IMG/VR virus record: IMGVR_UViG_3300048694_001042
Coordinates: 24,494 to 88,493 of that record
Length of the DNA stretch: 64,000 nt
Source: a virus
Reading direction: 5' to 3' (one strand)
Every line of letters starts with the position of its first letter. The stretch's first letter is position 1. This document shows positions 35,925 through 63,293 of this stretch, piece after piece. Below the pieces are notes generated by a model, which ran no database searches, was not told the DNA's origin, and saw only the letters and a program-made list of their open reading frames with translations. The translations under genes were made by a program, and so were the position numbers.

Positions 35925-36123
35925 ACAAGAACAGTTCATGCAACTAACCCAAACTCGTTCGTACTATCAAGGTATGCGCGAAGGTGTTGAGTTATATGCA
36001 CACTGGCGGGACGGTGTACAGTATGTGGGTACCACTGGCCGCACTCTCAAGCAAGCTCTTGCTGATATCAACAGTGAAGAAGCACAGAGCATGGCTCGTT
36101 GCGATCGATTGAAGGTGATATGA
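35905..36123 (+). CDS. hypothetical protein
   Basis: GAGG SD before ATG 35905; AHWRDGVQYVGTTG. Confidence 0.6.
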   Translation: MITFTPEQEQFMQLTQTRSYYQGMREGVELYAHWRDGVQYVGTTGRTLKQALADINSEEAQSMARCDRLKVI

Positions 36124-36446
36124 GCAACTCTAAACGCAGAAGCCACTCTAAGCGCAAAACCACGCGAGTACGAGTTGCCCAGGCTGAGTCCGTCGATTGG
36201 TGGACCGAGCCCAACATTGAATTCAAAAAGCACGAGCTCATTCCACGGACCAAAGATGTTTTTGGTGAGCCCGGAATCCAAGCAGGCCGTCGTTGGTTCT
36301 ACAAAACCAATCGTGAATATTTCTACAATCGAACGCCAACACTCAACGGTGGCTGGGTGAGCGTTTCCAGAACGCGAATGTTTCTTGACTTCTATTTCAA
36401 ACGTCCAGAGGATGCCACATGGTTTCAACTAAAGTGTATGGGCTGA
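36120..36446 (+). CDS. dispersed member of the F-x-L-R/K-W small protein family
   Basis: ends FYFKRPEDATWFQLKCMG. Confidence 0.6.
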   Translation: MSNSKRRSHSKRKTTRVRVAQAESVDWWTEPNIEFKKHELIPRTKDVFGEPGIQAGRRWFYKTNREYFYNRTPTLNGGWVSVSRTRMFLDFYFKRPEDATWFQLKCMG

Positions 36447-43581: not shown

Positions 43582-43970
43582 CTGGATACTCAACATACAC
43601 TCGCTGGCAACGTATTGAAGAATGGGCCAAGAAACTAGGATTTCGACTGGCCGACCCCAAGCATGGCTGGACCGGTGTCGGCGATACTGATACAGTGGCA
43701 CTATACCCCGATGGCGAAGCACTGCCCATCTATGCCCGCGATACTGACATCTTCACAGGCACCTTCAGCCAAGTGGAAACCTTTCTCACAGGTTGGGTTC
43801 GGTACCAGCAATACGCGGCTATCTTGGGTGCCGCAGATGACAAGCGAGTCAAGCGGTACGAGGACAAAGAACGTGCTCGTCAAGTAGAACAACGCAAGCG
43901 GGAAGAGCAGAAACAGATGATGGAAGTGCTACGAGCTTCAGATGCTGAAAATTCCAGCAAGAAAAAGTAG
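43578..43970 (+). CDS. hypothetical protein
   Basis: ATGA overlap; 130 aa. Confidence 0.65.
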   Translation: MTGYSTYTRWQRIEEWAKKLGFRLADPKHGWTGVGDTDTVALYPDGEALPIYARDTDIFTGTFSQVETFLTGWVRYQQYAAILGAADDKRVKRYEDKERARQVEQRKREEQKQMMEVLRASDAENSSKKK

Positions 43971-44026
43971 TACTTGAGTATTACCTTTTTACACATAGGT
44001 TAGTACCCACTAACCTATTGTTTTGG

Positions 44027-44055
44027 TTGACCAATATTTGCCGTTTTGCTATAAT
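44027..44055 (+). promoter_or_regulatory. sigma70-like early promoter upstream of cassette array 1
   Basis: TTGACC-17-TATAAT; 10 bp perfect stem at 43995-44018. Confidence 0.8.
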
Positions 44056-44084
44056 ATACACATAGACAGCAAAAAGGACGCAAC

Positions 44085-44312
44085 ATGTGGAACTTGGAAG
44101 GCAAGCGAGTGGTTGGCAAATACATGGGCACATTCGTCGTGCAAGGTGTTGTTGAACTCAGTCGTGTGCAATACGGCGGTGAAGTGGCACACCACATTCA
44201 ACTGGACCAGCCCATTGAGGTCTACGGTGCTATGCGTGAGCGTGTGATTCTCGAGCACAAATATGTTGAGCGTGTGATGGACGTTCGTAACCAAAGCATT
44301 GAGGTTGAATAA
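44085..44312 (+). CDS. hypothetical protein
   Basis: AAGGA SD; first gene after promoter. Confidence 0.7.
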   Translation: MWNLEGKRVVGKYMGTFVVQGVVELSRVQYGGEVAHHIQLDQPIEVYGAMRERVILEHKYVERVMDVRNQSIEVE

Positions 44313-44498: not shown

Positions 44499-44861
44499 AT
44501 GAAATGGTTTGCTGAAACAACTGAATGGTCGGATGCTACTATTCCCAACGGGGTGTATTTGTTGGACGACTCAAAGAGCAAGATGTATGCATTCCGTCCG
44601 TTTGGGGGCGCAGGCAAAGTCAAAGTGTTCAAGAATCCAATCAAACTTGACACCCGTGGCCGCAAGTTCAAGATCAATGATGTGCAATACAAGACGCAAG
44701 TGAATGAGGAAGTGCCAGAAGGCCGCGTGTGGACAGTGAAAGGATCAAAAGGCGATGAGTACCGAGTATCAGAACTCAATGGAGAATATTCATGCACCTG
44801 CTCAGGATTTAAGTTTCGAGCCAAATGTAAGCACACGGAAAGTATTCGTCAAACGGTTTGA
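44499..44861 (+). CDS. SWIM zinc-finger protein
   Basis: VKGSKGDEYRV..CTCSGFKFRAKCKH. Confidence 0.75.
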   Translation: MKWFAETTEWSDATIPNGVYLLDDSKSKMYAFRPFGGAGKVKVFKNPIKLDTRGRKFKINDVQYKTQVNEEVPEGRVWTVKGSKGDEYRVSELNGEYSCTCSGFKFRAKCKHTESIRQTV

Positions 44862-45033
44862 TGTAGATAGCGTGGGCATGTTTCGAGATGGCCGTTGGGC
44901 TGAAATGATTGACTGGTGCCAACACAATCTATACCATGGTGGCTACTATGAGCCTAACTGGTATGCTGACTACCCTACGTTCTACTTCTACGACGAGAAG
45001 GAATACACTGCATTTTTGTTGAGGTGGTCATAA
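44755..45033 (+). CDS. LRW-family protein A1
   Basis: ends AFLLRWS; start uncertain (possibly 44878). Confidence 0.65.
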   Translation: MSTEYQNSMENIHAPAQDLSFEPNVSTRKVFVKRFDVDSVGMFRDGRWAEMIDWCQHNLYHGGYYEPNWYADYPTFYFYDEKEYTAFLLRWS

Positions 45034-45293
45034 TGGAAGCATTGGAACGCTACGAAATCGAGCAACGTCGCCCACTGATGGACTGTGTCACGTATAGTGA
45101 CAAGTCGTGGACTACGGTGGAACTCCAGGACTGTCATTCTGGTGCATGGCAGTGGGGAGAAGGTGAGTATTACAACTGGTGTGATGCTAACTGTACCGAC
45201 AAATACAACATCGTAAAATACAAACATCAAACTATCGTTGGGCGTTTCAAGAGTGCCGCAGATGCTACTGCGTTTGTGTTGAGGTGGTCATGA
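45033..45293 (+). CDS. LRW-family protein A2
   Basis: TAATG overlap; ends AFVLRWS. Confidence 0.75.
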   Translation: MEALERYEIEQRRPLMDCVTYSDKSWTTVELQDCHSGAWQWGEGEYYNWCDANCTDKYNIVKYKHQTIVGRFKSAADATAFVLRWS

Positions 45294-45496
45294 TCAAAGA
45301 TATGGTACTTCACCATGATTGGACTGTGGTTGAGTTTGACGTGCCCAAATGGGTCATGGACAGAGTGGCCAAGGAACGCGAGATTCGCACTTGGTGCGAC
45401 ACACATTTCCCCCATGGTCGTTGGCAAGTGTTTTCCAATAGGGCGTATTTCCAAAAAGCCAGTGACGCTGTATTTTTCAAAATGGTGTGGTCGTGA
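45290..45496 (+). CDS. LRW-family protein A3
   Basis: ATGA overlap; ends FFKMVWS. Confidence 0.75.
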   Translation: MIKDMVLHHDWTVVEFDVPKWVMDRVAKEREIRTWCDTHFPHGRWQVFSNRAYFQKASDAVFFKMVWS

Positions 45497-45693
45497 AAAT
45501 AGAAAAGACTGGATACGCCGGGTGGAACAACTATCCTGTTTATCGTGTGAGAAGTTTTCAGGATTGGGAAGAACTCACTAGATGGATGCGAGCCAATGGT
45601 GTAGAACATTTCTTGTTGAGCAGTAGTAGTAGCATGGGATATACTTTTCAAGTAACACATAACCATGAGTGGTTTGCGTTGAGGTGGGCATGA
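45493..45693 (+). CDS. LRW-family protein A4
   Basis: GTGA overlap; ends WFALRWA. Confidence 0.75.
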   Translation: MKIEKTGYAGWNNYPVYRVRSFQDWEELTRWMRANGVEHFLLSSSSSMGYTFQVTHNHEWFALRWA

Positions 45694-45896
45694 AAATCAA
45701 AGTAAAAGATCTCTACTTCAAATTATCACAGCAATACCCCTACAATTACAGAGTGGAGGTCAGTGCCGATGCTCTTGCGGCTGACAAAGTAAGTGCGTGG
45801 TTGAAAGAAAATTCAATTCCGCATACACAAACCGGTTGGGGTGTGTATTATATGAACAAGCCCGGTGTTGAGTGGTTGTTGATGAGGTGGTCATGA
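45690..45896 (+). CDS. LRW-family protein A5
   Basis: ATGA overlap; ends WLLMRWS. Confidence 0.75.
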   Translation: MKIKVKDLYFKLSQQYPYNYRVEVSADALAADKVSAWLKENSIPHTQTGWGVYYMNKPGVEWLLMRWS

Positions 45897-46177
45897 GTCA
45901 CGGACCTTTGACGCCAGTGGAGAGAATTTTGGCAACTATTCGTCGCAAACATACCAAAGGTGAGTGGCGGTTTGATTACAATCCCGACAAAGAACGCTGG
46001 GAAACTTATCGCACGCCAATAGACTGGCCGTTTGGTTTGTATGGCTGGCTGTGGGAGCTTGGTAATCCACTCAGTGATCTAGCAGGCAATGAATCTAGTG
46101 GCTGGGACTATCATGGTGGCCATATTTACTTCTACGATGAGAAGTTGGTCACTGCGTTTATGTTGAGGTGGTCATGA
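45893..46177 (+). CDS. LRW-family protein A6
   Basis: ATGA overlap; ends AFMLRWS. Confidence 0.75.
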   Translation: MSHGPLTPVERILATIRRKHTKGEWRFDYNPDKERWETYRTPIDWPFGLYGWLWELGNPLSDLAGNESSGWDYHGGHIYFYDEKLVTAFMLRWS

Positions 46178-46386
46178 AATTTACACCTGTTGACTTGCCA
46201 ATTCAGTATGGCAAAATAGAAGCAGTAAAATGGCTAAGAGAAACCATTGGTTATTCCAGGCTGGACGCGATGGCACGGTGGGACCAACTGATTTGGTATC
46301 ACGATTGGGTGTCCAGTAAAGAATGTTTTAGATTCTACTTTCGTAATCCCGAACACGCAACACTATTCGCATTGAGGTGGCTATAA
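46174..46386 (+). CDS. LRW-family protein A7
   Basis: ATGA overlap; ends LFALRWL. Confidence 0.75.
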   Translation: MKFTPVDLPIQYGKIEAVKWLRETIGYSRLDAMARWDQLIWYHDWVSSKECFRFYFRNPEHATLFALRWL

Positions 46387-46637
46387 TGACTGAAGTGTAT
46401 CTTATAATCGACGGCCAAAAGGTTCGTGTGCCTACTCGCCCCTATGAGGCTTCGGACTTGGGTTGGCACAGAGGTGCAGATTATGGGTCTGCATTAAACT
46501 GGAAAGAACACGATTTTGTATCGATACGGGAGTGGTGTGAGGCAACATTTGATCCGCATGTTTACAAAATGTTTATGCGAAGCGTTTGGTTCTTATATGA
46601 GCACGATGCTGTGCTGTGTAGGTTGAAGTGGTCATGA
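46386..46637 (+). CDS. LRW-family protein A8
   Basis: TAATG overlap; ends LCRLKWS. Confidence 0.75.
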   Translation: MTEVYLIIDGQKVRVPTRPYEASDLGWHRGADYGSALNWKEHDFVSIREWCEATFDPHVYKMFMRSVWFLYEHDAVLCRLKWS

Positions 46638-46819
46638 CCAAAATACCTGTAAAATTCGATGACAGATTCAGCCGACACGAAGTATTTTACTGGGCCATTG
46701 CGGCGTTTGGCGCACCAGAAAGATGGCGCTCAAATGAGCGTTGGTCGTGGGACACCATCGATACTTTTTATTTCCGTGATCAAGAGGATGCTATTTACTT
46801 TGCATTGAGGTGGCGATGA
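46634..46819 (+). CDS. LRW-family protein A9
   Basis: ATGA overlap; ends YFALRWR. Confidence 0.75.
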   Translation: MTKIPVKFDDRFSRHEVFYWAIAAFGAPERWRSNERWSWDTIDTFYFRDQEDAIYFALRWR

Positions 46820-47049
46820 ATTCAGCACAAAGACGTCGAGCACGACGTGAATTTCCGCATGTGGTGTTGTTGAACCCAGCAGAATCAGAACGGTACTTTC
46901 AGCATGACAACCGAGTAATCAAAGCCCGTGGGTGGTGTCGGCGTCAATTTGTCGAAGGTACCTGGACCAGCAAAGAACTTTGGGACCACGCAGAGTTTAA
47001 GTTTAGTAAACAAAAGGATGCAGTGTATTTTGCACTCAAATGGTCATGA
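46816..47049 (+). CDS. LRW-family protein A10
   Basis: ATGA overlap; ends YFALKWS. Confidence 0.75.
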   Translation: MNSAQRRRARREFPHVVLLNPAESERYFQHDNRVIKARGWCRRQFVEGTWTSKELWDHAEFKFSKQKDAVYFALKWS

Positions 47050-47237
47050 AGGTTTATCAAGTTGTGGGCTACCCACGCAATCATTATTTTGTTAAAACTT
47101 TTTCAGAGTTATTGGAAATTATGAGTTGGATGCAAAAGAACAATGTAGGTCATTTGCACGAATCCAGCGGCCTACACGGATATGGATTTAGCGTTCGTAA
47201 GAACATCGAGTGGTTTGCATTGAAGTGGTTGACATGA
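47046..47237 (+). CDS. LRW-family protein A11
   Basis: ATGA overlap; ends WFALKWLT. Confidence 0.75.
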   Translation: MKVYQVVGYPRNHYFVKTFSELLEIMSWMQKNNVGHLHESSGLHGYGFSVRKNIEWFALKWLT

Positions 47238-47506
47238 CGCACATCAAAACTTGGCGTTTAACTTGGAGTTACGATAGCTTGCCCGGTGCCCACGACATCG
47301 AGTACGCAGAAAGTCTTGGCTGCACGGTTGTGGTCCACGACAACATAAAGACGGCAGAAATTACAGGTCCAGATGGCAGAGCCTATTATTATGCCCGGCC
47401 CAGTTTCTACGGATTGGAATTTATTACTACAACCGATAGACAAGAAATGGCTTTGCTGTTAAAATATGGAGACTTACTAGAGCTTCGGCGCACCAAAGCA
47501 ATATGA
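47234..47506 (+). CDS. LRW-family variant A12
   Basis: ATGA overlap; ALLLKYG plus short extension. Confidence 0.65.
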   Translation: MTHIKTWRLTWSYDSLPGAHDIEYAESLGCTVVVHDNIKTAEITGPDGRAYYYARPSFYGLEFITTTDRQEMALLLKYGDLLELRRTKAI

Positions 47507-47787
47507 TGATGACTAATGTTCAGAATTGGATTCGTAGTAAGCGACCGCATGTTCGTGATATGGTCTATGGCGATAAACTTTTTTACTTTGCACCATACGA
47601 AGAGCCCGGTTGGCTTAGAGATGATGGGTACCGATGGTATCGCATAAGTTGCAGTTATTGGTTCGCGGACTGGATCGAAGCAAACGGAATCAAAAATGTG
47701 CAGTGGGAAGCTTACGGTGAACGGCATCGTGCCATTTACATGGTGCGTGATGACTTGTTTGCGTTTATAAAGTTGAAGTGGCTGTGA
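47503..47787 (+). CDS. LRW-family protein A13
   Basis: ATGA overlap; ends FIKLKWL. Confidence 0.75.
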   Translation: MMMTNVQNWIRSKRPHVRDMVYGDKLFYFAPYEEPGWLRDDGYRWYRISCSYWFADWIEANGIKNVQWEAYGERHRAIYMVRDDLFAFIKLKWL

Positions 47788-47802
47788 AAACGTGTTGCAC
47801 AA

Positions 47803-48018
47803 ATGAGTTATTTGAAGCATGAGGTGAAAATTCACAAAGACCAATATTGGGACGCCACTCACTGGTGTTTTGACCAGTTTGGTAGCAGATGGAGTCCGGT
47901 CAGCAACAGATCGGGTGCGTGGGCAGTATTTTGGTGTGGTACTGATCAGCGAAACCTATATAGGTTTTCTTTTGCTCAGGAGCAGGACATGGTTTGGTTT
48001 GCATTGAGGTTTGCATGA
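47803..48018 (+). CDS. LRW-family protein A14
   Basis: 15 nt gap upstream; ends WFALRFA. Confidence 0.75.
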   Translation: MSYLKHEVKIHKDQYWDATHWCFDQFGSRWSPVSNRSGAWAVFWCGTDQRNLYRFSFAQEQDMVWFALRFA

Positions 48019-48242
48019 AAGTCAATCTATTTAATCATTGGTTCAAATATAAAGTCCCTGTTGATACGCATATTGATAGGGTTAAGGATGCTGTATTAAA
48101 AGATAAACAACATTACTTGCGTTTTTGGGGCTGGCTCAATGATGTACATGATGTGGGGCAATACTACAAAGTCAGTGAAGGTCGCAACTACATGGTATTT
48201 CACAATCGAGCTCACTATATGATGTTTCTGTTAAAATTATGA
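48015..48242 (+). CDS. LRW-family protein A15
   Basis: ATGA overlap; ends MFLLKL. Confidence 0.7.
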   Translation: MKVNLFNHWFKYKVPVDTHIDRVKDAVLKDKQHYLRFWGWLNDVHDVGQYYKVSEGRNYMVFHNRAHYMMFLLKL

Positions 48243-48505
48243 TACTTCGAGACATAGACAAACTTTGGTATACCTTGCCGGACAAGATGGAGAACTTCAC
48301 CGGTCAGCGAGTAGACGACGATCCGGAGTGTCGCCGTTTTATTCGCAAAAACTTCAGTCATTGGCAATTCAGCGGTCTGGACAAGTTTGACGAAATTTTG
48401 ATTTGGTGCGAACAACACCTGGGCAATAATTTTATTTGGGACTGGGAAACCATTTATTTCAAGACTGAGCAAGACCGGGCGTTCTTTTTGTTGAGGTGGG
48501 CATGA
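48239..48505 (+). CDS. LRW-family protein A16
   Basis: ATGA overlap; ends FFLLRWA. Confidence 0.75.
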   Translation: MILRDIDKLWYTLPDKMENFTGQRVDDDPECRRFIRKNFSHWQFSGLDKFDEILIWCEQHLGNNFIWDWETIYFKTEQDRAFFLLRWA

Positions 48506-48708
48506 AATACTGGAACAAAGATAAAAACACTAGACAGAAACATTGGTTTCGTGTTGAGCTGCCCAACAAAGGGTGGAACTACGCTCAATCCAAGCGTGAG
48601 TTACAACTGCAAGACAGCCCGGGTAAGTTTTATCTCTACTACGGTAGCAATAGTATTTGGTTTGAGCGCGAGCAGGATGCTATGTGGTTTAGGTTGAAAT
48701 GTGTATGA
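48502..48708 (+). CDS. LRW-family protein A17
   Basis: ATGA overlap; ends WFRLKCV. Confidence 0.75.
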   Translation: MKYWNKDKNTRQKHWFRVELPNKGWNYAQSKRELQLQDSPGKFYLYYGSNSIWFEREQDAMWFRLKCV

Positions 48709-48935
48709 GAGTAGATATTGAACCGCAGTGGAAGCGACTGGCCAACTGGTATTGGGACAATGCTGGCGGCTACGAAGGTGTGGGCATGAGCATTTGGGCA
48801 ATGCTGGAGCGTGACTACGGTGCTATCAAAGTTTACCATGGTGTCCGCGGCGGCAAACTCGGAGCAAAGCACCAGTCCTTGGTGGAATTTCCTGACGAAA
48901 AAACTTATACAATGTTCTTATTGAGGTTTGGATGA
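48705..48935 (+). CDS. LRW-family protein A18
   Basis: ATGA overlap; ends MFLLRFG. Confidence 0.75.
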   Translation: MRVDIEPQWKRLANWYWDNAGGYEGVGMSIWAMLERDYGAIKVYHGVRGGKLGAKHQSLVEFPDEKTYTMFLLRFG

Positions 48936-49165
48936 TTAGAATAAAGATATTTGAAGAAGATCGCCATCCATTAGAAATCCCACAATGGTGGTATAACTTT
49001 TGTCCAGATAGTTTCGGCGAAGAAGAACTCAATCATGCTCTCATGGACTGGTCAGCAAACTTTTGGATAGCAAAACCCATAAATCCGTTAAACGGTTACG
49101 GGGACAGATATCTTGATTTTTACGATGAAAAAGCGTATACTTGGTTTATGCTGAGGTGGACATAG
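48932..49165 (+). CDS. LRW-family protein A19
   Basis: ATGA overlap; ends WFMLRWT. Confidence 0.75.
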   Translation: MIRIKIFEEDRHPLEIPQWWYNFCPDSFGEEELNHALMDWSANFWIAKPINPLNGYGDRYLDFYDEKAYTWFMLRWT

Positions 49166-49407
49166 TGTTTATCCATACATACGAGCTGATGAAAGATGCA
49201 GATGGTTCCGGTGGCGGACCATGGCACGTTGCGGCATTTACTGCTCCAAGAAGCTATCGTGAGATTGTTGAGTGGTGCTTAAAAACATTTGGACCAGCAG
49301 GCTACCATGATACACCGCAGGCCAGATGGAAAAATGATATTTTCTACGGTGAAGTATATTTTAGTCGTCAAGAAGACCTTGAGTGGTTTGTATTGAGGTG
49401 GTCATGA
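49165..49407 (+). CDS. LRW-family protein A20
   Basis: TAGTG overlap; ends WFVLRWS. Confidence 0.7.
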   Translation: MFIHTYELMKDADGSGGGPWHVAAFTAPRSYREIVEWCLKTFGPAGYHDTPQARWKNDIFYGEVYFSRQEDLEWFVLRWS

Positions 49408-49619
49408 AAACTATCCCACAGCATCCTTACCTACAAAATATTGTGGCAGAATACCGTCGTCAGCATGGAATGGGACCCACGCACTTATGGGATTCCAATC
49501 ACTATGTCAAATGGCTAAAACAATTTGGATTTCGAGTTCCCATGGACTTTCACAAAATAGAATTTCCTGACGATTTTTCTGACCAAGATTTGCTGTTGTT
49601 TGTATTGAGGTGGCGGTAA
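49404..49619 (+). CDS. LRW-family protein A21
   Basis: ATGA overlap; ends LFVLRWR. Confidence 0.75.
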   Translation: MKTIPQHPYLQNIVAEYRRQHGMGPTHLWDSNHYVKWLKQFGFRVPMDFHKIEFPDDFSDQDLLLFVLRWR

Positions 49620-49822
49620 TGTACTATCTACCAATCAGCCCCTACCATAAACATTTATGTGACTATTGGGATGCTACTGGTCGTGGCCAAACACCTACTA
49701 GCAACTTTTGGGCTTGGGTCGAAAAAGAATACGGTGCTGAACTCACGCTATGGGAACGACCCGAGCGATGGCGATTTAAGGATGAACAAGATATGATTTG
49801 GTTTGCGTTGAGGTGGCGATGA
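49619..49822 (+). CDS. LRW-family protein A22
   Basis: TAATG overlap; ends WFALRWR. Confidence 0.75.
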   Translation: MYYLPISPYHKHLCDYWDATGRGQTPTSNFWAWVEKEYGAELTLWERPERWRFKDEQDMIWFALRWR

Positions 49823-50109
49823 AAATAAACTTCAAGAGTGTAGATGATGTAGCACATGATGTGTTGGTTGACCATTTTCGTGGCTTGCTAGAAATCGTGC
49901 CGGCATACGTTCCTGACGGGTTTGTCAATGAAGGGCGAAAACCGCCTGAAGGTTATGAGAGCTATGTTTGCGTGGATGTGTTAGGTGAAGAACTGTTGTG
50001 GATGAACGAACAGTTCCCCCAAGAACAATACACTTGGTATATTTGGTTTGAGTCAATATTTTTAGTTACTCCGGAAATGGCTTCGTACTTGAAGTTGAAG
50101 TGGTCATGA
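49819..50109 (+). CDS. LRW-family protein A23
   Basis: ATGA overlap; ends YLKLKWS. Confidence 0.75.
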   Translation: MKINFKSVDDVAHDVLVDHFRGLLEIVPAYVPDGFVNEGRKPPEGYESYVCVDVLGEELLWMNEQFPQEQYTWYIWFESIFLVTPEMASYLKLKWS

Positions 50110-50351
50110 AACCCTGCGAACTACAAACCATGCTGGCACGAGCCATACGTGATTCGGTACAGGACAAGCCATGGACTCCTCCTCCAGAAGCACGAGTTAT
50201 TACAGGCAATCCCAAACATGACGCACAACTGCACCATGTGCTGGTTGAATATGGCATAGAGGTAGAGTTGGGAAAATACCATGACCTTGTGGATTACCGT
50301 GTTGTCGATGAACAAAAGTTCATGATGTTTTTGTTGAAGTGGGCACGATGA
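50106..50351 (+). CDS. LRW-family protein A24
   Basis: ATGA overlap; ends MFLLKWAR. Confidence 0.75.
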   Translation: MKPCELQTMLARAIRDSVQDKPWTPPPEARVITGNPKHDAQLHHVLVEYGIEVELGKYHDLVDYRVVDEQKFMMFLLKWAR

Positions 50352-50533
50352 CCAAATTTCGAATCGATCATCGATACAACCATATTGGCGTCAACGTCTT
50401 TCTCTGTGCCAACGAGTTTGACCAAATATACAATTGGTGCTATAATAAACCCGAAGCATACGATTGTTATTCCACTGGATTCGTATATCGAACCAAAAAT
50501 GATTTAACAATGTTTTTGTTGAGGTGGTCATGA
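50348..50533 (+). CDS. LRW-family protein A25
   Basis: ATGA overlap; ends MFLLRWS. Confidence 0.75.
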   Translation: MTKFRIDHRYNHIGVNVFLCANEFDQIYNWCYNKPEAYDCYSTGFVYRTKNDLTMFLLRWS

Positions 50534-50730
50534 AAGTAGTAGAAAGCTCAAGTTATTCTGGATGGAACGACTATCCTGTTTATAGAGTCAGATCGTTTCA
50601 AGATTGGCTTGACCTTATTGGGTGGATGAAAGAAAACCACGTAGAACATTTTTTACTGTCATCGGGTTATGGTGGATATGTATTTCAAGTTAAAACTAAT
50701 GCCGAATGGTTTGCACTGAGGTGGTCATGA
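50530..50730 (+). CDS. LRW-family protein A26 (close paralog of A4)
   Basis: ATGA overlap; shares YPVYRVRSFQDW and VEHFLLSS; ends WFALRWS. Confidence 0.78.
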   Translation: MKVVESSSYSGWNDYPVYRVRSFQDWLDLIGWMKENHVEHFLLSSGYGGYVFQVKTNAEWFALRWS

Positions 50731-51002
50731 AAGTGCATGAAATGCAAGACGGGCAAGTGTTTGGACATCGCTATACTGTGATTCCCTGTGAGTTTTTTGA
50801 CTACGATCGTCAAGCCGATTCGGATGAACTCTGGCGTAGTGAAGAACTCAAAGCCCTGAATCTATGGTGTTGGGAAGCGTTTGGCGAACAAGGTGAACCC
50901 TATGACTATATGGGTGCGCCTCACCGTTGGTATCAGCAAAAAGGACAGTTTTGGTTTCGTGATGCGGCAGATGTCGCTTGGTTTAAGTTGAAATGGGCAT
51001 GA
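50727..51002 (+). CDS. LRW-family protein A27
   Basis: ATGA overlap; ends WFKLKWA. Confidence 0.75.
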   Translation: MKVHEMQDGQVFGHRYTVIPCEFFDYDRQADSDELWRSEELKALNLWCWEAFGEQGEPYDYMGAPHRWYQQKGQFWFRDAADVAWFKLKWA

Positions 51003-51340
51003 ACTACAATCCTACTACAGCAGCCAGTGTAGCTGCCAATGGACAAAAGATATTACTTCCTATGATTAGGAAGGTTATGCCTACCATTATGGCACAGCAG
51101 ATTGTGGGGGTGCAACCTATGACAAATAATCTAGGTATCTTTAATCGGTTACTCTACAAAAATTTCAATAAGAAATATTGGCCCTATCAATATTTTATCG
51201 ATGATAAAACATATCGAATTAGCGATGTTGAGCGTTGGTGTTGGGATCAGTTCAAAGGTCGCTACTGGAACAATTACGGCAGGAACTTTGTATTCAAGCG
51301 TGAGAAGGATGCTGTGATGTTTGCCTTGAGGTGGCTATGA
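50999..51340 (+). CDS. LRW-family protein A28 with N-terminal major-capsid (Gol-like) peptide
   Basis: ILLPMIRKVMPTIMAQQIVGVQPMT; ends MFALRWL. Confidence 0.75.
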   Translation: MNYNPTTAASVAANGQKILLPMIRKVMPTIMAQQIVGVQPMTNNLGIFNRLLYKNFNKKYWPYQYFIDDKTYRISDVERWCWDQFKGRYWNNYGRNFVFKREKDAVMFALRWL

Positions 51341-51597
51341 TGGCAGTTACAATGATTGAACGCATGGTTGGGGACGGTAAGCCTTATAAGGTGCCAAAGT
51401 TACACAGGATCGTGTGGAAGACACGCACTTGGGCAGGTAGTCCATCATATTTGGATGAAAACTTCCTGGAAATGGACGCATGGTGTGAAAAAAACTGTCG
51501 GCATCCTTACTACCACGGCCCTGCTTGGCAACATGACTGTTTTATTGAGTTTGAATGTGATCAAGATGCCACAATGTTTGCCTTGAGGTGGCTATGA
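51337..51597 (+). CDS. LRW-family protein A29
   Basis: ATGA overlap; ends MFALRWL; bracketed by identical 24 bp repeats. Confidence 0.75.
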   Translation: MMAVTMIERMVGDGKPYKVPKLHRIVWKTRTWAGSPSYLDENFLEMDAWCEKNCRHPYYHGPAWQHDCFIEFECDQDATMFALRWL

Positions 51598-51767
51598 GTT
51601 ATTTGTATACTACACCGGATGATGTTAAACCTGAATTTGGCGCGTGGACTAATCGCAAAGAATGGTGTGAAAAGAATTGCCAAGGAGCATGGAAATACAT
51701 GCTCCAAGGTAAGTTTGTTTTCTATGACGAAAAAGATTATGTGTTGTTCATGTTGAGGTGGTCATGA
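51594..51767 (+). CDS. LRW-family protein A30 (57 aa, missing from ORF track)
   Basis: MSYLYTTPDD...EWCEKNCQGAW...FVFYDEKDYVLFMLRWS. Confidence 0.75.
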   Translation: MSYLYTTPDDVKPEFGAWTNRKEWCEKNCQGAWKYMLQGKFVFYDEKDYVLFMLRWS

Positions 51768-52027
51768 TTCATCCAAATGATCCGCTTGCTAAGGATCTTT
51801 TTGAAAAAGAACCTAACATTCTTATGTTGGCCAAGAGCTCGGTGGACGGTGAGCAGTGGTACACAATCAGTTGTTTGCGAGATGTGTCAATGTGGATACA
51901 CAACGAGCACAGCGAACAAGAAAACAAGCTGTGGTTTGAAAATACTGACAGCCGTTGGCGGCGGAATTTCAACGTGTTTGATGTTCACGAAAAGTTTTAC
52001 TCCATACTGGCACTGAGGTGGTTATGA
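51764..52027 (+). CDS. LRW-family protein A31
   Basis: ATGA overlap; ends ILALRWL. Confidence 0.75.
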   Translation: MIHPNDPLAKDLFEKEPNILMLAKSSVDGEQWYTISCLRDVSMWIHNEHSEQENKLWFENTDSRWRRNFNVFDVHEKFYSILALRWL

Positions 52028-52245
52028 CTTACTGGAGCACACATCAATTTTTTCCTGTGGCAAAAACGTACAATTCATCATGGCTTTGTCAAGAAGCAGA
52101 GTTTTGCAAGCAATATTTTGGGGACAACGATCCTTACCAATTGCTACAGCACCGTGCTTGGTTTACTGGTCCTGACGGTGTTTGGATTCGACTTGACTGT
52201 GTGGACTCCACTATTGCCACGTGGTTTGCCCTAAAGCGATCATAA
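52024..52245 (+). CDS. LRW-family protein A32 (last in array 1)
   Basis: ATGA overlap; ends WFALKRS. Confidence 0.7.
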   Translation: MTYWSTHQFFPVAKTYNSSWLCQEAEFCKQYFGDNDPYQLLQHRAWFTGPDGVWIRLDCVDSTIATWFALKRS

Positions 52246-52246
52246 C

Positions 52247-52266
52247 AAAGCCCCTTGCGGGGCTTT
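52247..52266. terminator. bidirectional terminator closing array 1
   Basis: AAAGCCCC-TTGC-GGGGCTTT between convergent genes. Confidence 0.8.
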
Positions 52267-52271
52267 GATTT

Positions 52272-52499
52272 TTACGATTGGTCTACAAACTTTTTAAGTT
52301 CTTCGGCCTTGGCAATAATGTCAGTGCTGGACGGAAAGTCTGGCAGCGTTGGAAATGCAAGTGTTTCTCGATTGGCTTCGGTTATCTTGGAATGATATTC
52401 CTGTAATCGAGCATCGCGAGTTTGGTATATTGGCGTTACGAGAATTTCGTTGGCCATTTTGAGAAGTTCGAGACGGATCTCGTACGGTGTTTTGCTCAT
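52272..52499 (-). CDS. hypothetical protein
   Basis: AGGAG SD; PYEIRLELLKMA..IIAKAEELKKFV. Confidence 0.7.
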   Translation of the reverse strand: MSKTPYEIRLELLKMANEILVTPIYQTRDARLQEYHSKITEANRETLAFPTLPDFPSSTDIIAKAEELKKFVDQS

Positions 52500-52571
52500 G
52501 TTTTTCTCCTGTGTAATGTGTGTGTAATATTGCCCTGCCCCTTGCAGGACAAGATTGCTACACGAGCATGT

Positions 52572-53003
52572 TTACTTATAGATGTAATTGATGGTGTCAG
52601 GATTTTCGCGCAGTTCGCGGGCACCATTCTTCAAGTGAAAGCGACGAGCCATCTCGGTCTTGGGACTTAGGGTCACGTAGGTCTGTATGCCCGGAAATTC
52701 GCTTTCGATGCTTCGCTGTGCTTCCACAATCAAATCACGTCCAGCACCAGCGGCGTAACTCCAAATGGTGTAAAATACCGCAGTTGTGGCACTGCCGACA
52801 CCATCCACCAAGTCGTCCACTGACGCCGGAACAGCCTCCAAAAACTTAACACAGGTCACAGCACGTGGTTTATCCCCGTCTTGTAACATGTAAATTCTTG
52901 AGTTGGAATTGATTCTGCGTTCGGCAGGAATCTCGGGACGCACAGGGTCGTCCTTGAGCAGTCGAACAATTTCTTCGGTGATGGTGGTGATGGTTTGTAA
53001 CAT
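52572..53003 (-). CDS. GNAT-fold protein resembling the malonyl-CoA decarboxylase catalytic domain
   Basis: TAVFYTIWSY..GAGRDLI..EFPGIQTYVTLSP. Confidence 0.55.
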   Translation of the reverse strand: MLQTITTITEEIVRLLKDDPVRPEIPAERRINSNSRIYMLQDGDKPRAVTCVKFLEAVPASVDDLVDGVGSATTAVFYTIWSYAAGAGRDLIVEAQRSIESEFPGIQTYVTLSPKTEMARRFHLKNGARELRENPDTINYIYK

Positions 53004-58060: not shown

Positions 58061-58304
58061 ATCAGTATTTGGCAACATGGCATATGACTTGGTCACTGAC
58101 CATGCAGGACAAATTGTTGAGTCAATAGAGGAAAATCAGTACAATCAGTGGCAACGTGAATTTGTGTGGGATGCTTTGCAAAATCAAAGGTTCGGTCAAA
58201 GTTTTTGCAAAGCATTTGACATAAAGGACGCTATCCTGTATTATGAACGTGACTGGGTGCGAGCCGATGCTTACATTAGAAGAAACTATATTGCACGACC
58301 GTGA
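58053..58304 (+). CDS. hypothetical protein
   Basis: AGGAG SD, TTG start; RFGQSFC. Confidence 0.6.
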   Translation: MGESVFGNMAYDLVTDHAGQIVESIEENQYNQWQREFVWDALQNQRFGQSFCKAFDIKDAILYYERDWVRADAYIRRNYIARP

Positions 58305-58521
58305 ATCGTGGTCCACAATTGTGTTGCTCGGCTGTTTGCCAATGGATGCTGTGGTAAAAAAACATGATTTGATATCAGACGGCTTGGTACTAGATGAAGA
58401 TTTTTGTTGGGGCTATCGTTCATCAGAGTATGACGGTTTTACGATGAATCGTGATCGTCATGCTGTGTTTGCGTTTAGAGATCCTGTGGTGGCTGGATTT
58501 TATAGATTAAAATGGTTATGA
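58267..58521 (+). CDS. LRW-family protein B1
   Basis: ends FYRLKWL; start uncertain. Confidence 0.6.
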   Translation: MLTLEETILHDRESWSTIVLLGCLPMDAVVKKHDLISDGLVLDEDFCWGYRSSEYDGFTMNRDRHAVFAFRDPVVAGFYRLKWL

Positions 58522-58874
58522 TCGAACGCTTTGTATTGAACGACTTGCCTGATGGCTGGTCAGTGTCGTGGCCTGGCTTTGAGTGGGTAGTATGCGACAA
58601 CGAGCTCAAGGCCACTAACTTGCTAAAGATCTTGTTTGATGAAGTCAACGTGGATGAAGCTATTGTGGCGGTAAAATACAGTGACAAAGATTTTATAGTA
58701 AACATTCCTTGGTACACTTATCATCAGAATCCCGACGCTTCGGGCAGATTTTTAGTACGCAACCATGTAGTAACAGGTGTGAAATTTGTTACACTAGAGC
58801 AAGCACAAAAGTTCAAAGGCATCATGGACAAGCGACTGGCTTGGCGCCAACTGAGTGGCAGGAACTGGCAGTGA
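58518..58874 (+). CDS. hypothetical protein
   Basis: ATGA overlap; no LRW tail. Confidence 0.65.
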   Translation: MIERFVLNDLPDGWSVSWPGFEWVVCDNELKATNLLKILFDEVNVDEAIVAVKYSDKDFIVNIPWYTYHQNPDASGRFLVRNHVVTGVKFVTLEQAQKFKGIMDKRLAWRQLSGRNWQ

Positions 58875-59083
58875 TTAAAATTACTCTCAAAACGCAACTA
58901 ACAGGTCATCAACAACAATGGCTGACGCAAAACGTTGGACCCAGAATGTTTTATTTGCACAATCAAATAGGCGGAACTGGTTGGGTGGCCAAGCAAGAAA
59001 CTGTGCTGGGGAGTTACCGACAGTGGACACTGACGTTCGAAGATGATCGACTGGCAACTGCGTTTTTGCTAAAATGGAAATAA
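58871..59083 (+). CDS. LRW-family protein B2
   Basis: GTGA overlap; ends AFLLKWK. Confidence 0.7.
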   Translation: MIKITLKTQLTGHQQQWLTQNVGPRMFYLHNQIGGTGWVAKQETVLGSYRQWTLTFEDDRLATAFLLKWK

Positions 59084-59292
59084 CACAGCGAATCTATGAT
59101 GGATGCGATTGCTATCCCTGGCGCAAAACCTTTGTGATTTGGCCTAGACGTAGCATAACTGGGCAACGTGTTTGGATGACCGTTGCCTACAAACGACGAT
59201 ATTGGGCGGTGTGGGGCACCGGATTCCATATGGAACCTGAGGTAGAGTATGCTACAATATTTGAAATACTAGCAGATAATCATGGACGTTGA
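59074..59292 (+). CDS. hypothetical protein
   Basis: WRKTFVIWPRRSITGQRVWM. Confidence 0.6.
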   Translation: MEITQRIYDGCDCYPWRKTFVIWPRRSITGQRVWMTVAYKRRYWAVWGTGFHMEPEVEYATIFEILADNHGR

Positions 59293-59488
59293 AGCAGAAA
59301 ATACATTCAGAATCCTAAAGAATGAGCCGCCGTTGACTACCAGTTGGTTGTGTAGATTTGGTTGGCATCGCTGGACACAATGGTCAGAAGTGTACTTGCC
59401 TAAGAATGGACAAAACAATATTCAGCACAGTCACTGTGATCACTGCAACCGAATGCGAGTACATAAAGTAACAGGACCCGGAATATGA
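59282..59488 (+). CDS. Cys/His small protein
   Basis: LCRFGWHRW..CDHC. Confidence 0.6.
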   Translation: MDVEAENTFRILKNEPPLTTSWLCRFGWHRWTQWSEVYLPKNGQNNIQHSHCDHCNRMRVHKVTGPGI

Positions 59489-59706
59489 TACTAAAAGCAG
59501 AGCAAATCGAAAAGTGGTTGTATTATGAAACTGGGTTTGAACAACTGCATCCGCGCCCGCCTATTCTTAAGTGGATGGCAGAGCAAGGTTACAAGTATAA
59601 TCAAGATTGGCGTTGCACTCGAATGGTTACGCCCACGGGGCTGATCTATGGCTTGATGTTTCCCAGTGAGGAAGTAAAAATTATGTTTATGTTGAGGTGG
59701 TCATGA
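59485..59706 (+). CDS. LRW-family protein B3
   Basis: ATGA overlap; ends MFMLRWS. Confidence 0.75.
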   Translation: MILKAEQIEKWLYYETGFEQLHPRPPILKWMAEQGYKYNQDWRCTRMVTPTGLIYGLMFPSEEVKIMFMLRWS

Positions 59707-60050
59707 AACCTTGTGTTTGGTATGATACAGATGAAAAGTTGCCGCCTACCAAAGGCTACTACCTTGCGTTCAAAGGCATGAGCATGGGAGACGACGAAAC
59801 TGAGACAGCCTATTACTACTGGGACCCAAAGTATGCAGAGTGGCGAGACTACGAAAGCCGAAGCATTGGCGGCTATGCTAACGTGGTGTACTGGACTGAC
59901 GCCGACCCTGCTACCTGGTACGAAAATTACAGTATGCCACCACGAAGCAAAACCAAACGCAAAGTATCAGAGGCAGAAATAGATGCTTGGCGTGCTGTAG
60001 AACAAGCAATTGAACGATATGAAGTTGTAAGGGCATTAGCAAAGAAATGA
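59703..60050 (+). CDS. hypothetical protein (DUF551-like pattern)
   Basis: W....EKLP....YL..VVYW. Confidence 0.6.
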   Translation: MKPCVWYDTDEKLPPTKGYYLAFKGMSMGDDETETAYYYWDPKYAEWRDYESRSIGGYANVVYWTDADPATWYENYSMPPRSKTKRKVSEAEIDAWRAVEQAIERYEVVRALAKK

Positions 60051-60523
60051 ACTACTCAATAATGACAGACTCAGAGCTGCTACACTATCTAGACTTGTAT
60101 TCCAACGATCCACTGATTCGCAGGCTGGTTGACTTGATGCAAAACACTCGTGGCGAGGTTATCCGAGACTTAGTTGACGCAGGTATGGATTCAAAGACTT
60201 GGACATTTAGCACCGACTATGAAACAATGTATCCAGGTGAGTACATTGAATCACTGCGTAGTGAGCTTCGATGCAACGAACAAGACATGGATGACATGCG
60301 ATATGAATTGGAAAAAGCCTCCGATGAACGGGACGAATTAAAAACTCGCAACATCATGCAGTTCATCGAAGAAGTTCAGCAAGAAAAGCGAGCTGCTGCT
60401 GCCAAAGCCCAAGCGGCATACGCAGACGTTGCTAGCATTCGTGAGGAATCAAGCAAAGTAAAAAAAGAAAACGAAAAACTGCGAGAGCAAATCAACATGT
60501 GGGGGCGAATGAACACAGTATGA
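60047..60523 (+). CDS. coiled-coil protein
   Basis: ATGA overlap; heptads. Confidence 0.65.
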   Translation: MNYSIMTDSELLHYLDLYSNDPLIRRLVDLMQNTRGEVIRDLVDAGMDSKTWTFSTDYETMYPGEYIESLRSELRCNEQDMDDMRYELEKASDERDELKTRNIMQFIEEVQQEKRAAAAKAQAAYADVASIREESSKVKKENEKLREQINMWGRMNTV

Positions 60524-60738
60524 TTACCTACGTACAACCATGGGAAGAACTGCCCAGTTTGAGAGTACCACGCCTGCACCGAGTAAACTACAATCCCAAA
60601 TACAACTGGGGCGAAGTGCAATACTGGTGCAAGGAAAATTGTCGTGCTCCTTCCTACATGGGCGGTAGTTGGTCTGGAAACTTTGCGGAGTTTGAAGATG
60701 ATCAAGACGCTGTGCTGTTTGCATTGAAATGGGCATGA
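60520..60738 (+). CDS. LRW-family protein B4 (paralog of A29)
   Basis: VPRLHRV..WCKENCR..EFEDDQDAVLFALKWA. Confidence 0.75.
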   Translation: MITYVQPWEELPSLRVPRLHRVNYNPKYNWGEVQYWCKENCRAPSYMGGSWSGNFAEFEDDQDAVLFALKWA

Positions 60739-60959
60739 TCACCGCCAGTGTTAGATTAAAAGAGCCAGAAAATCAGTATAAGTTTATTGATGAGGGCCCT
60801 ATTAACGTCTGGTTGCTGGCCAATGTTGGTGTTCATGCAAGATTCAAAGATCTAGTGGATGAGGATCGTCCTTGGCATGTTGAACATAATTTTCGAGAAC
60901 TTGTGTATCATTTTGCTCGCGAGCAGGATGCCACTGCATTTGCATTGAGATGGTCATGA
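60735..60959 (+). CDS. LRW-family protein B5
   Basis: ATGA overlap; ends AFALRWS. Confidence 0.75.
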   Translation: MITASVRLKEPENQYKFIDEGPINVWLLANVGVHARFKDLVDEDRPWHVEHNFRELVYHFAREQDATAFALRWS

Positions 60960-61183
60960 ATAATAGAACATTACCCGGAACTTCGGAATCACTACACAAT
61001 GCTGGAGTTTGGTTGCGAGAGTATCTTAATGTACCTCCCCGGCATACAATTTTTGACCAGTTTGAAGAATACTTCAACTGTCAACTGGTTGTGGAGCACA
61101 GAGAAGATCCGTGGTACTGTCCGGACCGGGCTGTGTTCAACACCGAACAAGATTTAACAGCATTTTTATTGAGGTGGGCATGA
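60956..61183 (+). CDS. LRW-family protein B6
   Basis: ATGA overlap; ends AFLLRWA. Confidence 0.75.
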   Translation: MNNRTLPGTSESLHNAGVWLREYLNVPPRHTIFDQFEEYFNCQLVVEHREDPWYCPDRAVFNTEQDLTAFLLRWA

Positions 61184-61401
61184 TGTTTGATCACCCTGCA
61201 GTCATAAAACTGCAAACAACCAACATCTGGGACATTGAATCTCGGGTAAGCGAAATACATGAAATACGACGTTGGTTGGATGAACTAACACTGTGGCAAG
61301 ATGATATGTATCGTATGGAAACAATCACACCAAAGAACTCATTAAGGGTTTGGTTCAAGGATCCCCAGCATGCAGTGTTTTGCAAGCTGAGGTGGCCTTG
61401 A
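61180..61401 (+). CDS. LRW-family protein B7
   Basis: ATGA overlap; ends FCKLRWP. Confidence 0.75.
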   Translation: MMFDHPAVIKLQTTNIWDIESRVSEIHEIRRWLDELTLWQDDMYRMETITPKNSLRVWFKDPQHAVFCKLRWP

Positions 61402-62738: not shown

Positions 62739-62748
62739 AAATCACTCA

Positions 62749-63278: not shown

Positions 63279-63293
63279 TCATACATAGTACTA

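Follow-up and report, generated by a model that had tools for sequence, protein, structure and literature searches.

The DNA analyzed here is a stretch of 64,000 nt (the window) that comprises bases 24494 to 88493 of an 88,493-bp virus record, IMG/VR record IMGVR_UViG_3300048694_001042. Between positions 44755 and 52245 of the window, 32 consecutive open reading frames (ORFs) for small proteins lie on the plus strand, as an earlier reading of the letters alone (the original prediction) had claimed and as the ORF listing confirmed. We refer to this segment as array 1 and to its genes as A1 to A32; a second array, array 2, is located downstream. The family profile matches 31 of the 32 array 1 genes (30 of the 32 ORFs in a local hmmsearch at an E value of ≤1e-3), and 46 matches on the entire contig (E ≤ 0.01) bear out the predicted figure of about 47 copies; none of the profile matches listed for the contig is on the minus strand. 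We propose that array 1 forms one early-type operon in a hyperplastic region, extending from a promoter at 44027 to a terminator at 52246, in which two leader genes would be followed by 32 translationally coupled small proteins, 31 of them from one family, with the codons of the protein tail recruited to provide the Shine-Dalgarno (SD) site of the next gene and its overlapping start.

At 26 of the 31 junctions of array 1, the stop and start codons overlap by 4 nt (NTGA) and at 4 others by 1 nt; the remaining junction has a 15-nt spacer. Stop and start thus overlap at 30 of the 31 junctions, as in a translationally coupled operon, and since nearly all junctions are of this kind, the real starts are the ATG or GTG codons within the overlaps and not the upstream GTGs of the program-made ORF list. 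With the starts picked here, the array 1 proteins have 51 to 113 amino acids (aa), with 92 aa for gene 1 if its start is at 44755. Where a protein ends in L-R-W-S, the DNA reads TTG AGG TGG TCA TGA, and the next ATG overlaps this TGA. The general form of the junction is TTG AGG TGG xxA TGA; the last residue is free because its codon need only end in A. GAGGTGG is a strong SD site, given the known 3' end of 16S rRNA, and it lies here within the coding region of the upstream gene, about 5 nt 5' of the ATG. The pattern AGGTGG-N1-4-ATGA occurs 17 times on the plus strand, always within the two arrays (14 times in array 1), and is absent from the minus strand.

The choice of codon is telling. AGG is the rarest Arg codon, accounting for 11 of 399 in 20 long plus-strand ORFs and for 12 of 219 in the bodies of the array genes. 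At the Arg position of the tail it is used in 26 of 28 cases in the window (20/20 in array 1 and 6/8 in array 2), against a background of 3 to 5%. In the corresponding loci of relatives, AGG was observed in 75 of 83 cases where the stop overlaps a downstream start and in 2 of 14 where there is none (Fisher P = 1.3e-8, a value that overstates independence, as the loci include near-identical records). The Trp is still there in uncoupled copies of relatives, with tails such as VLHWA, TLYWQ, and ALFWS, and A32, which has no successor, ends in ALKRS with neither the Trp nor an SD site. Our reading is that the Trp and Leu reflect a structural constraint on the protein and that the AGG codon, and in part the choice of Arg, reflects a constraint of ribosome binding. 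The constant tail that had been proposed as a separate module did not hold up: these residues form the final turn of the core helix, and their codons double as SD site and next start. By its sequence, such a tail could let one mRNA feed ribosomes along the whole chain without intergenic DNA. Same-strand ATGA or TAATG overlaps with the SD site in the last codons of the upstream ORF belong to translational coupling in general, in bacteria and phages alike (on such overlaps, see also PMC3887535); the difference is that the SD site is built here from a family-wide R-W motif and is repeated about 40 times in 17 kb, and that the rare AGG is nearly fixed.

Promoter and terminator were both confirmed at the positions predicted for them (Table 1), and the assignment of the promoter to an early type is supported by its sequence, as it belongs to an extended sigma70-like cassette of which there are several copies. 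The 29-mer has 4 copies with ≤3 mismatches in the window, compared with 0 expected, and the extended motif, which takes in the spacer together with about 25 nt of leader, occurs at about 10 sites on the contig. This cassette consists of TTGACCAATAATTCCCATTTTGCTATAAT and a common leader ending in an SD site; it is always on the plus strand and often 3' of a hairpin. Several copies have inverted repeats just upstream, and the hairpin at 43995-44018 precedes the copy at 44027. As excerpts of PMC2839356 and PMC4122927 describe them, PeSLs (promoter early stem-loop elements) are composites of sigma70-like early promoters and stem-loop terminators in hyperplastic regions of T4-type genomes. Stem-loop and promoter ahead of array 1 likewise combine into a repeated sigma70-like promoter/stem-loop composite, and the element looks PeSL-like, with a predicted promoter and a predicted terminator. 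Read depth at 43817-44133 was 1.4 to 3 times that of the neighboring bins in four of four runs, which fits a repeat. The GC skew amounts to +0.16 to +0.18 in the array region versus about 0.0 to 0.08 across most of the window. The sole internal promoter-like site found in array 1 (50418-50446, inside A25) matches at 11 of 12 positions, is TG extended, and shares TTGACCAA and TGCTATAAT with the repeated cassette; this putative promoter may serve the last seven genes.

Two alignments, one of 47 members and a wider one of 149 sequences, gave the same consensus (WC..G...W...F..E.DA..F.LRW), in agreement with the claim that most members share a core; in the wider alignment, W20, F47, F56, L58, and W60 are each conserved at ≥90%. 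Conserved positions are aromatic and aliphatic, and Trp makes up 6.2% of the residues. The surface is variable, as had been supposed, in that the hydrophobic residues are the conserved ones and the isoelectric point (pI) ranges from 4.4 to 10.4. N-terminal extensions range from about 0 to 60 residues. One small alpha/beta scaffold is supported by AlphaFold2 models of two divergent members, which contain the same beta-alpha-beta-beta-alpha core: the model of A2 (86 aa; predicted local distance difference test score [pLDDT], 78.6) shows a beta-hairpin followed by alpha-beta-beta-alpha, and that of A9 (61 aa; pLDDT, 88.8) a clean beta-alpha-beta-beta-alpha arrangement in which the tail is the end of the last helix. 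On these models, the family would be a domain of 50 to 60 residues whose aromatic core is conserved, whose surface is free, and whose N-terminal extension varies.

That no described family was recognized in the original prediction is supported in Pfam, PHROGs, and PDB. None of the 149 members shares any Pfam family at E ≤ 0.1, none matches PHROGs for the module at E ≤ 1e-3 (only the capsid fragment of A28, described below, does), and Foldseek returned no PDB match at E ≤ 1e-3 for either model. Nor did any match in BFVD reach E ≤ 1e-3, the best being an uncharacterized protein of Atu_ph07 (E, 3.4e-3), in which the profile has 4 weak matches (E about 1e-3). An exhaustive structural scan (VIA) reached Z scores of at best 5.3 for model 1 and 5.5 for model 2, values at which many unrelated folds tie; the matches are generic small two-layer alpha/beta proteins, namely, RRM, ACT, KH, secretin N-domains, and designed ferredoxins. 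An exhaustive profile search of 1.84 billion representatives (clusters at 50% identity) retrieved 3264 proteins at E ≤ 1e-3. The best 150 of these 3264 have mostly 59 to 140 aa. We inspected 20 sequences: in single-domain matches the domain is C terminal, with (R/K)W and one further residue at the end, and two-domain forms account for 7 of the 20. All named members are called hypothetical protein, among the cluster names seen, and the ESM Atlas neighbors are unnamed viral clusters without a Pfam family. The profile matched none of five cultured phages (T4, Vibrio 2.275.O, XaC1, fHe-Yen9-04, and RHph_Y68). A word-indexed protein search gave only 5, 0, and 3 matches, which makes it too insensitive for this family, and the finding of no fusions to longer proteins in it is weak evidence. 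Full-text literature searches found no paper describing the family or the architecture. The family is virus-only and uncharacterized. The top match of the exhaustive search, P0001 (1176 aa), was rejected as a homologue, since this repeat protein matches the first helix only (WC..NFG); it is a helicase-like metagenomic protein in which a segment (…LEIQNWCNQNFGDKEIW…) matching just this helix of the profile is repeated at least 7 times, and the repeat is probably convergent or a separate mini-motif.

The proteins had been termed hypervariable, which is misleading: they are old subfamilies with orthologues in other phages, and the sampled variants are mostly synonymous. Only 56 of the 1326 pairs that the 52 genes of the two arrays can form are detectable by BLASTP at E ≤ 1e-3, and a single pair, A4/A26, reaches 66% identity; recent in situ amplification was rejected on these grounds. 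Better matches outside than inside the genome were obtained for 47 of the 52 genes, in a limited outside set of 379 sequences, and for 19 of these the outside match has 52 to 98% identity. Because the paralogues are very divergent and have closer matches outside the genome, the array is a collection of old subfamilies and not the product of recent amplification, hypermutation, or in situ diversification. Single-base population variants were typed for 30 of the 40 listed (out of 122 rows), those left out being 10 at 48299-48339, where the contig is indel-riddled; among these, 18 were synonymous and 12 nonsynonymous, a split that fits purifying selection on real genes.

Promoterless cassettes behind one promoter, with a short repeat at each boundary, recall integrons, and the diversity might be generated by an integron-like site-specific cassette system or by targeted hypermutation of the kind seen in diversity-generating retroelements (DGRs). 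We regard this as scarcely credible for the following reasons. (i) Tyrosine integrase (PF00589) was found in none of three genomes (G000, 25% complete; G003, 100%; G005, 92%; control positive in 14 of 14), and reverse transcriptase (PF00078) was found in none of three, including the two 92 to 100% complete relatives with 34 and 38 copies (controls positive); serine recombinases and attC-like folds were not searched for. (ii) A Pfam scan revealed no recombinase among the neighbors of the array. (iii) There are no template/variable repeat pairs, self-similarity being confined to the junction ends and one old duplicate. (iv) The paralogues are ancient rather than recently diversified. The array 1 junctions are 15-nt direct repeats, and exchange would presumably proceed here by general homologous recombination.

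Comparison of relatives showed that the array is not invariant: copy number, content, and order all differ. The SWIM-like gene that serves as the upstream anchor has 109 relatives in IMG/VR (40 to 72% identity), and the loci of 80 of these were compared. At least one family match is present within 10 kb in 52 of the 80 loci, with a maximum of 16, and five relatives that are 92 to 100% complete carry 2, 3, 34, 3, and 38 family copies. The flanks are syntenic, with 64 to 84% protein identity; they are formed by the SWIM gene on one side and by the two minus-strand genes at 52272-52499 and 52572-53003 and the block that follows on the other. Between these flanks there are 1 (locus L007), 4 (L046), at least 13 (L022), at least 15 (L017), and at least 16 (L075) cassettes. 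Orthogroups were defined at ≥45% identity, using stop-to-stop ORFs cut to the last 120 residues and plus-strand matches only. So defined, 30 of the 43 family ORFs of the window have no orthologue in the 80 loci. The conserved members sit at the edges, A1 being found in 17 loci, in each directly 3' of the SWIM gene, and B20, the last gene of array 2, in 38. The order of common orthogroups is shuffled between phages, and some that belong to array 1 in one phage are found in array 2 or 5' of the SWIM gene in another. DNA similarity between A18 and its orthologue in L034 is restricted to 48705-48927, and that between A11 and its orthologue in L019 to 47041-47230, the 400 nt on each side being unrelated in both cases. 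Since similarity ends at the cassette ends and the order is shuffled, whole cassettes are the unit of change. A lone family member is present at a third site of the window (36078-36446; profile match, 36282-36437). At the equivalent site, L046 carries an orthologue (68%) of the array 2 gene B17, and cassettes thus also move between distant sites.

A junction that brings SD site, start, and homology makes any copy expressible and easily duplicated or exchanged, so that the arrays could be a neutral or selfish expansion with most members useless to the phage. The many members without an orthologue fit this explanation, as do the five unrelated genes that sit behind the same junctions in array 2 and the three complete relatives that manage with 2 or 3 copies, from which it follows that large arrays are dispensable. 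We nevertheless consider it quite improbable. Orthologues at 50 to 78% identity have been retained in phages that share 64 to 84% identity in their flanking genes, the hydrophobic core is conserved in 149 sequences, 31 of the 32 frames are intact with no pseudogenes seen, and the variants are, among those listed, mostly synonymous.

How the cassettes are exchanged may be read from the DNA they have in common. In a self-comparison, different cassettes share only their last 35 to 51 nt (82 to 89% identity), apart from one 176-bp old duplicate, and a RecA/UvsX-family recombinase is encoded in all five genomes searched. Since the junction ends are the only common DNA, a RecA-family enzyme is present, and neither integrase nor reverse transcriptase was found, we infer homologous recombination at the junctions: the phage's RecA/UvsX-type enzyme would act within the 15 to 50 bp of junction homology, and cassettes would be gained, lost, and reordered as a result. 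Whether the junction is a recombination site is, in our judgment, evenly balanced. Loose contig ends at 51767 were observed in four of four runs, and others fall at 49401-49410, 51599, and 50707-50709 (among 24 of 259 listed); many contigs diverge from the window right at junctions, which is no more than suggestive of junction recombination, given that alignments stop at the best-conserved spot.

This exchange is proposed to work as PeSLs do in T4-type phages, and excerpts of PMC2839356 and PMC4122927 describe recombination between these repeats that swaps, deletes, and inserts whole genes. In both cases short conserved repeats occur in plastic regions of small nonessential genes between conserved blocks. 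There are three differences. (i) The repeat inside array 1 consists of 15 to 50 bp with the C-terminal helix, the SD site, and the stop/start overlap and not of a promoter and a terminator; the intra-array junctions comprise 15 nt of coding sequence plus SD site and start, with no -35/-10 pair and no hairpin, and hence are not PeSL repeats. (ii) The genes between the repeats are paralogues of one family, whereas PeSL regions hold unrelated ORFans. (iii) No mini-circles or recombination events were observed in array 1.

Table 1. Features of array 1, its flanks, and related elements, in window positions unless contig positions are indicated (window position = contig position minus 24493)
Feature	Position	Strand	Remarks
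Stem-loop, 10-bp stem, T-rich tail	43995-44018	+	Directly 5' of promoter; terminator-like site
Sigma70-type promoter, TTGACC-17-(TG)CTATAAT	44027-44055	+	11/12, TG extended
First operon ORF, 75 aa	44085-44312	+	ATG with SD; sub-threshold Glyoxalase_8 match only
120-aa protein, SWIM-zinc-finger-like CxC...CxH end	44499-44861	+	Upstream anchor; SWIM E 0.0039, below Pfam cutoff
A1, first family gene, tail LLRWS	44755-45033	+	Profile match 44884-45030; start 44755, 44779, or 44878
A2, 86 aa, tail VLRWS	45033-45293	+	AlphaFold2 pLDDT 78.6; orthologues P0152-P0154, 58-72% identity
A3, 68 aa, tail KMVWS	45290-45496	+	GTG TGG replaces AGG TGG; profile match; external P0016, 56%
A4, 66 aa, GTG start, tail ALRWA	45493-45693	+	Recent paralogue of A26, 65.6% identity
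A5, 68 aa, tail LMRWS	45690-45896	+	Profile match
A6, 94 aa, tail MLRWS	45893-46177	+	Profile match
A7, 70 aa, tail ALRWL	46174-46386	+	Profile match
A8, 83 aa, tail RLKWS	46386-46637	+	Profile match; orthologue in L075, 52%
A9, 61 aa, tail ALRWR	46634-46819	+	Minimal module; AlphaFold2 pLDDT 88.8, beta-alpha-beta-beta-alpha
A10, 77 aa, tail ALKWS	46816-47049	+	Profile match; orthologue in L022, 61%
A11, 63 aa, tail LKWLT	47046-47237	+	Orthologue in L019, 75%
A12, 90 aa, ends in RTKAI, without family tail	47234-47506	+	No profile match, no Pfam family
A13, 94 aa, tail KLKWL	47503-47787	+	Profile match; followed by the only spacer (15 nt)
A14, 71 aa, tail ALRFA	47803-48018	+	Profile match
A15, 75 aa, tail FLLKL (without W)	48015-48242	+	Profile match; orthologue P0155, 60%
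A16, 88 aa, tail LLRWA	48239-48505	+	Profile match
A17, 68 aa, tail RLKCV	48502-48708	+	Profile match; orthologue in L019, 63%
A18, 76 aa, tail LLRFG	48705-48935	+	Orthologue in L034, 75%
A19, 77 aa, tail MLRWT	48932-49165	+	Profile match
A20, 80 aa, GTG start, tail VLRWS	49165-49407	+	Profile match
A21, 71 aa, tail VLRWR	49404-49619	+	Weak profile match, E 1.6e-4; none at 1e-3 in local hmmsearch
A22, 67 aa, tail ALRWR	49619-49822	+	Profile match
A23, 96 aa, tail KLKWS	49819-50109	+	Profile match
A24, 81 aa, tail LKWAR	50106-50351	+	Profile match
A25, 61 aa, tail LLRWS	50348-50533	+	Profile match; promoter-like site 50418-50446 inside
A26, 66 aa, tail ALRWS	50530-50730	+	Paralogue of A4
A27, 91 aa, tail KLKWA	50727-51002	+	External match P0091, 77%
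A28, 113 aa, tail ALRWL	50999-51340	+	Module fused to N-terminal capsid-like segment; PF07068 match
A29, 86 aa, tail ALRWL	51337-51597	+	Best profile match of contig, E 1.6e-16
A30, 57 aa, tail MLRWS	51594-51767	+	Shortest member; profile match
A31, 87 aa, tail ALRWL	51764-52027	+	Profile match
A32, 73 aa, last gene, tail ALKRS (AAG CGA)	52024-52245	+	Profile match; without W, without SD
Terminator-like hairpin and T run	52246-52267	+	Closes operon; 9-bp stem, 6 GC pairs
Downstream anchor, two genes (75 aa, 143 aa)	52272-53003	-	76-82% identity in relatives
Array 2, 20 coupled genes	58267-63530	+	15 family genes and 5 unrelated genes
Unrelated genes of array 2 (118, 72, 68, 115, 158 aa)	Starts 58518, 59074, 59282, 59703, 60047 (within 58518-60523)		
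Promoter-cassette sites (contig positions)	9921, 10198, 10407, 39632, 39790, 59987, 60221, 66060, 66421, 68520, 79838		

Some entries of Table 1 call for comment. With a start at 44755 or 44779, A1 would overlap the last 83 to 107 nt of the SWIM-like gene in another frame (44755-44861), and in these long forms the overlapped stretch would code for the first beta-strand of the module (KVFVKRF). A12 looks like a decayed member, at most, or foreign cargo. The five unrelated genes of array 2 are coupled by the same kind of ATGA overlaps; the 158-aa protein is coiled-coil-like, and the start at 59703 sits at a perfect TTGAGGTGGTCATGA junction. At the downstream edge of array 1, the 143-aa anchor protein has a weak MCD/acyltransferase-like Pfam match. 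Contigs of runs X5 and X6 carry 16 other letters at 52229-52572, in place of the terminator and the 75-aa minus-strand gene, which is a structural variant at this edge.

The single array 1 protein with a recognizable segment is A28. Its residues 13 to 55 match positions 2 to 44 of the 376 positions of the PF07068 (Gp23) model (E, 5.8e-9; 36.3 bits, with a cutoff of 24.4), its residues 3 to 46 align with residues 74 to 122 of T4 gp23 (16 of 49 identical; E, 2e-6), and tblastn gave matches to the capsid genes of 116 phage records. A28 thus carries, ahead of the module, a copy, about 45 residues long, of the N-terminal stretch that is best conserved in T4-type major capsid proteins; it is a fragment and not a capsid protein. 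Such a fusion is present in further metagenomic members as well (P0002, P0010, and P0007), so that it represents a subfamily and not an accident; in an Atlas cluster of 113 members, 13% have Gp23. A contig of run X3 lacks 114 nt of A28 at 51121-51236, an in-frame gap of 38 codons, and the shorter side of the joint measures 81 nt; in this population variant, the capsid-like segment is followed almost immediately by the first helix of the module. We take the Gol peptide to be residues 93 to 122 of gp23, and exact coverage of Gol by A28 depends on this presumed numbering. A passage of PMC3014915, which does not contain these numbers, places Gol, which has 29 residues and binds EF-Tu, where gp23 is most conserved. 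The match to gp23, its recurrence in the metagenomic members, and the Atlas cluster would also suit head-assembly or virion-associated proteins, such as decoration, scaffold-interacting, or packaged internal proteins. This role appears very improbable to us, since the capsid segment occurs in just 1 of the 47 members here, the array is driven by the sigma70-type cassette of other small-gene regions and is not located among structural genes, and relatives that share this capsid type differ 10-fold in copy number.

What the family members do is constrained by the early-type promoter, the dispensability in some relatives, the conserved core with free surfaces, the age of the subfamilies and the purifying selection on them, and the capsid segment of A28. 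A uniform role as DNA mimic or nucleic acid-binding protein was rejected, as pI values range from 4.4 to 10.4, with 17 acidic and 16 basic proteins of 47. We tentatively suggest, at less than even confidence, that the proteins may be early, dispensable binders, each for a different host or competitor target, in host takeover or counter-defense; the original prediction had conjectured an anti-defense, host takeover, or adaptor repertoire. A special case of this idea is an immunity or antitoxin repertoire, in which each member would neutralize one variant of a polymorphic toxin, an abortive infection effector, or the weapon of a rival phage. Surfaces that vary on one scaffold are compatible with it, and a similar architecture exists in the EsaG/TsaI immunity strings of the type VII secretion system, which part of PMC9484751 describes as tandem, nonidentical small paralogues that are reshaped by homologous recombination between copies and form a repertoire against polymorphic partners. 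These strings are, however, bacterial, lie beside the toxin gene, and belong to another protein family. No cognate toxin gene was found at the array 1 locus, and the 149 members have no Pfam immunity family, with one chance-level match (Tis1_ImmP; E, 0.064). We hence regard this special case as improbable, somewhat more so than neutral expansion.

The anatomy of the array, the dual coding at its junctions, the shared fold, the size of the family, and the turnover among relatives, taken as one part, are very likely described correctly here. The whole, namely, an early-type operon with dual-coded junctions whose old cassettes are exchanged by homologous recombination, is in our estimate the best explanation and more likely right than not. 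A number of points weigh against it. (i) None of the 24 runs listed is on record as RNA, and the term early is read from the promoter sequence. (ii) Breakpoints at junctions are in part expected, as the junction is the most conserved DNA and alignments end there. (iii) In array-covering contigs of four metagenome studies, which extend up to 2179 nt with 0 or 1 differences, the gene order of the window is kept, and recent rearrangement was not seen. (iv) Joints across junctions were set aside as a sign of population rearrangement, since with sides of 20 to 24 nt they may be repeat mapping artifacts. (v) As to function, no fold match exceeds a Z score of 5.5, no fusion to a known domain was found except for the one capsid fragment, and no neighbors of known function were found at the locus. 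(vi) The 2 to 3 copies in three complete relatives fit neutral or selfish expansion as well.

The record itself is classed as linear, with a completeness of 25% (CheckV estimate), and codes for a ribonucleotide reductase, an ATP-dependent DNA ligase, a DnaK-type chaperone, and a tail-spike-like protein. Relatives found via a neighboring gene are records of 320 to 364 kb that are 92 to 100% complete, and near-identical DNA is present in freshwater and aquatic metagenome runs; on account of both, the record is a piece of an uncultured freshwater jumbo phage of about 350 kb, related to T4, and its capsid-type links point to T4-related phages. No close DNA relative was found among GenBank phages by megablast with an 8.4-kb stretch as the query, nor did tblastn with two family members give a match there. 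A full-length DnaK (Hsp70) gene is located at 22320-24206, with 66 to 69% identity to proteobacterial DnaK; Lak megaphages and other huge uncultured phages carry comparable genes.

Large viruses of eukaryotes offer a further comparison. The MGF110, MGF360, and MGF505 arrays of African swine fever virus and the host-range families of poxviruses consist of tandem diverged paralogues in variable genome regions, with a copy number that differs among strains and a link to host interaction. Array 1 resembles them in its tandem diverged paralogues, variable copy number, and location in a variable region; they differ in that they belong to eukaryotic viruses, encode unrelated proteins, have one promoter per gene, and include members of known function. 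The ingredients of array 1 are thus known, namely, ATGA-overlap coupling, repeat-mediated shuffling in T4-type hyperplastic regions, and multigene families of large viruses. What is new is a family-wide protein motif that doubles as SD site and start and, very probably, as recombination homology, as well as the size of an entirely unannotated family.

A number of implications can be derived from these data. (i) They would add a large virus-only family, with 3264 representatives at 50% identity and at least 46 copies in a quarter of one genome. (ii) One short stretch of DNA is under three constraints, those of the protein core, of ribosome binding and start codon, and probably of recombination homology, and codon-level selection can be measured directly, with AGG rising from a background of 3 to 5% to 93% at one site. 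(iii) The dual-coded junction could be a selected, enzyme-free exchange site, and the arrays an integron-like, shareable pan-library of early binders, some of which display captured peptides as decoys; we think this unlikely. If it were true, coinfecting freshwater jumbo phages would trade and stack cassettes in frame that are expressed at once, the more than 3000 clusters at 50% identity would each be tuned to a different host defense or takeover target, and the Gol-like capsid segment would exemplify a captured decoy peptide on the scaffold. (iv) If the cassettes act in counter-defense or takeover, small inhibitors could be drawn from the arrays as from a rich, presorted source, and the junction would account for the ability of jumbo phages to build up such repertoires with no dedicated recombinase.

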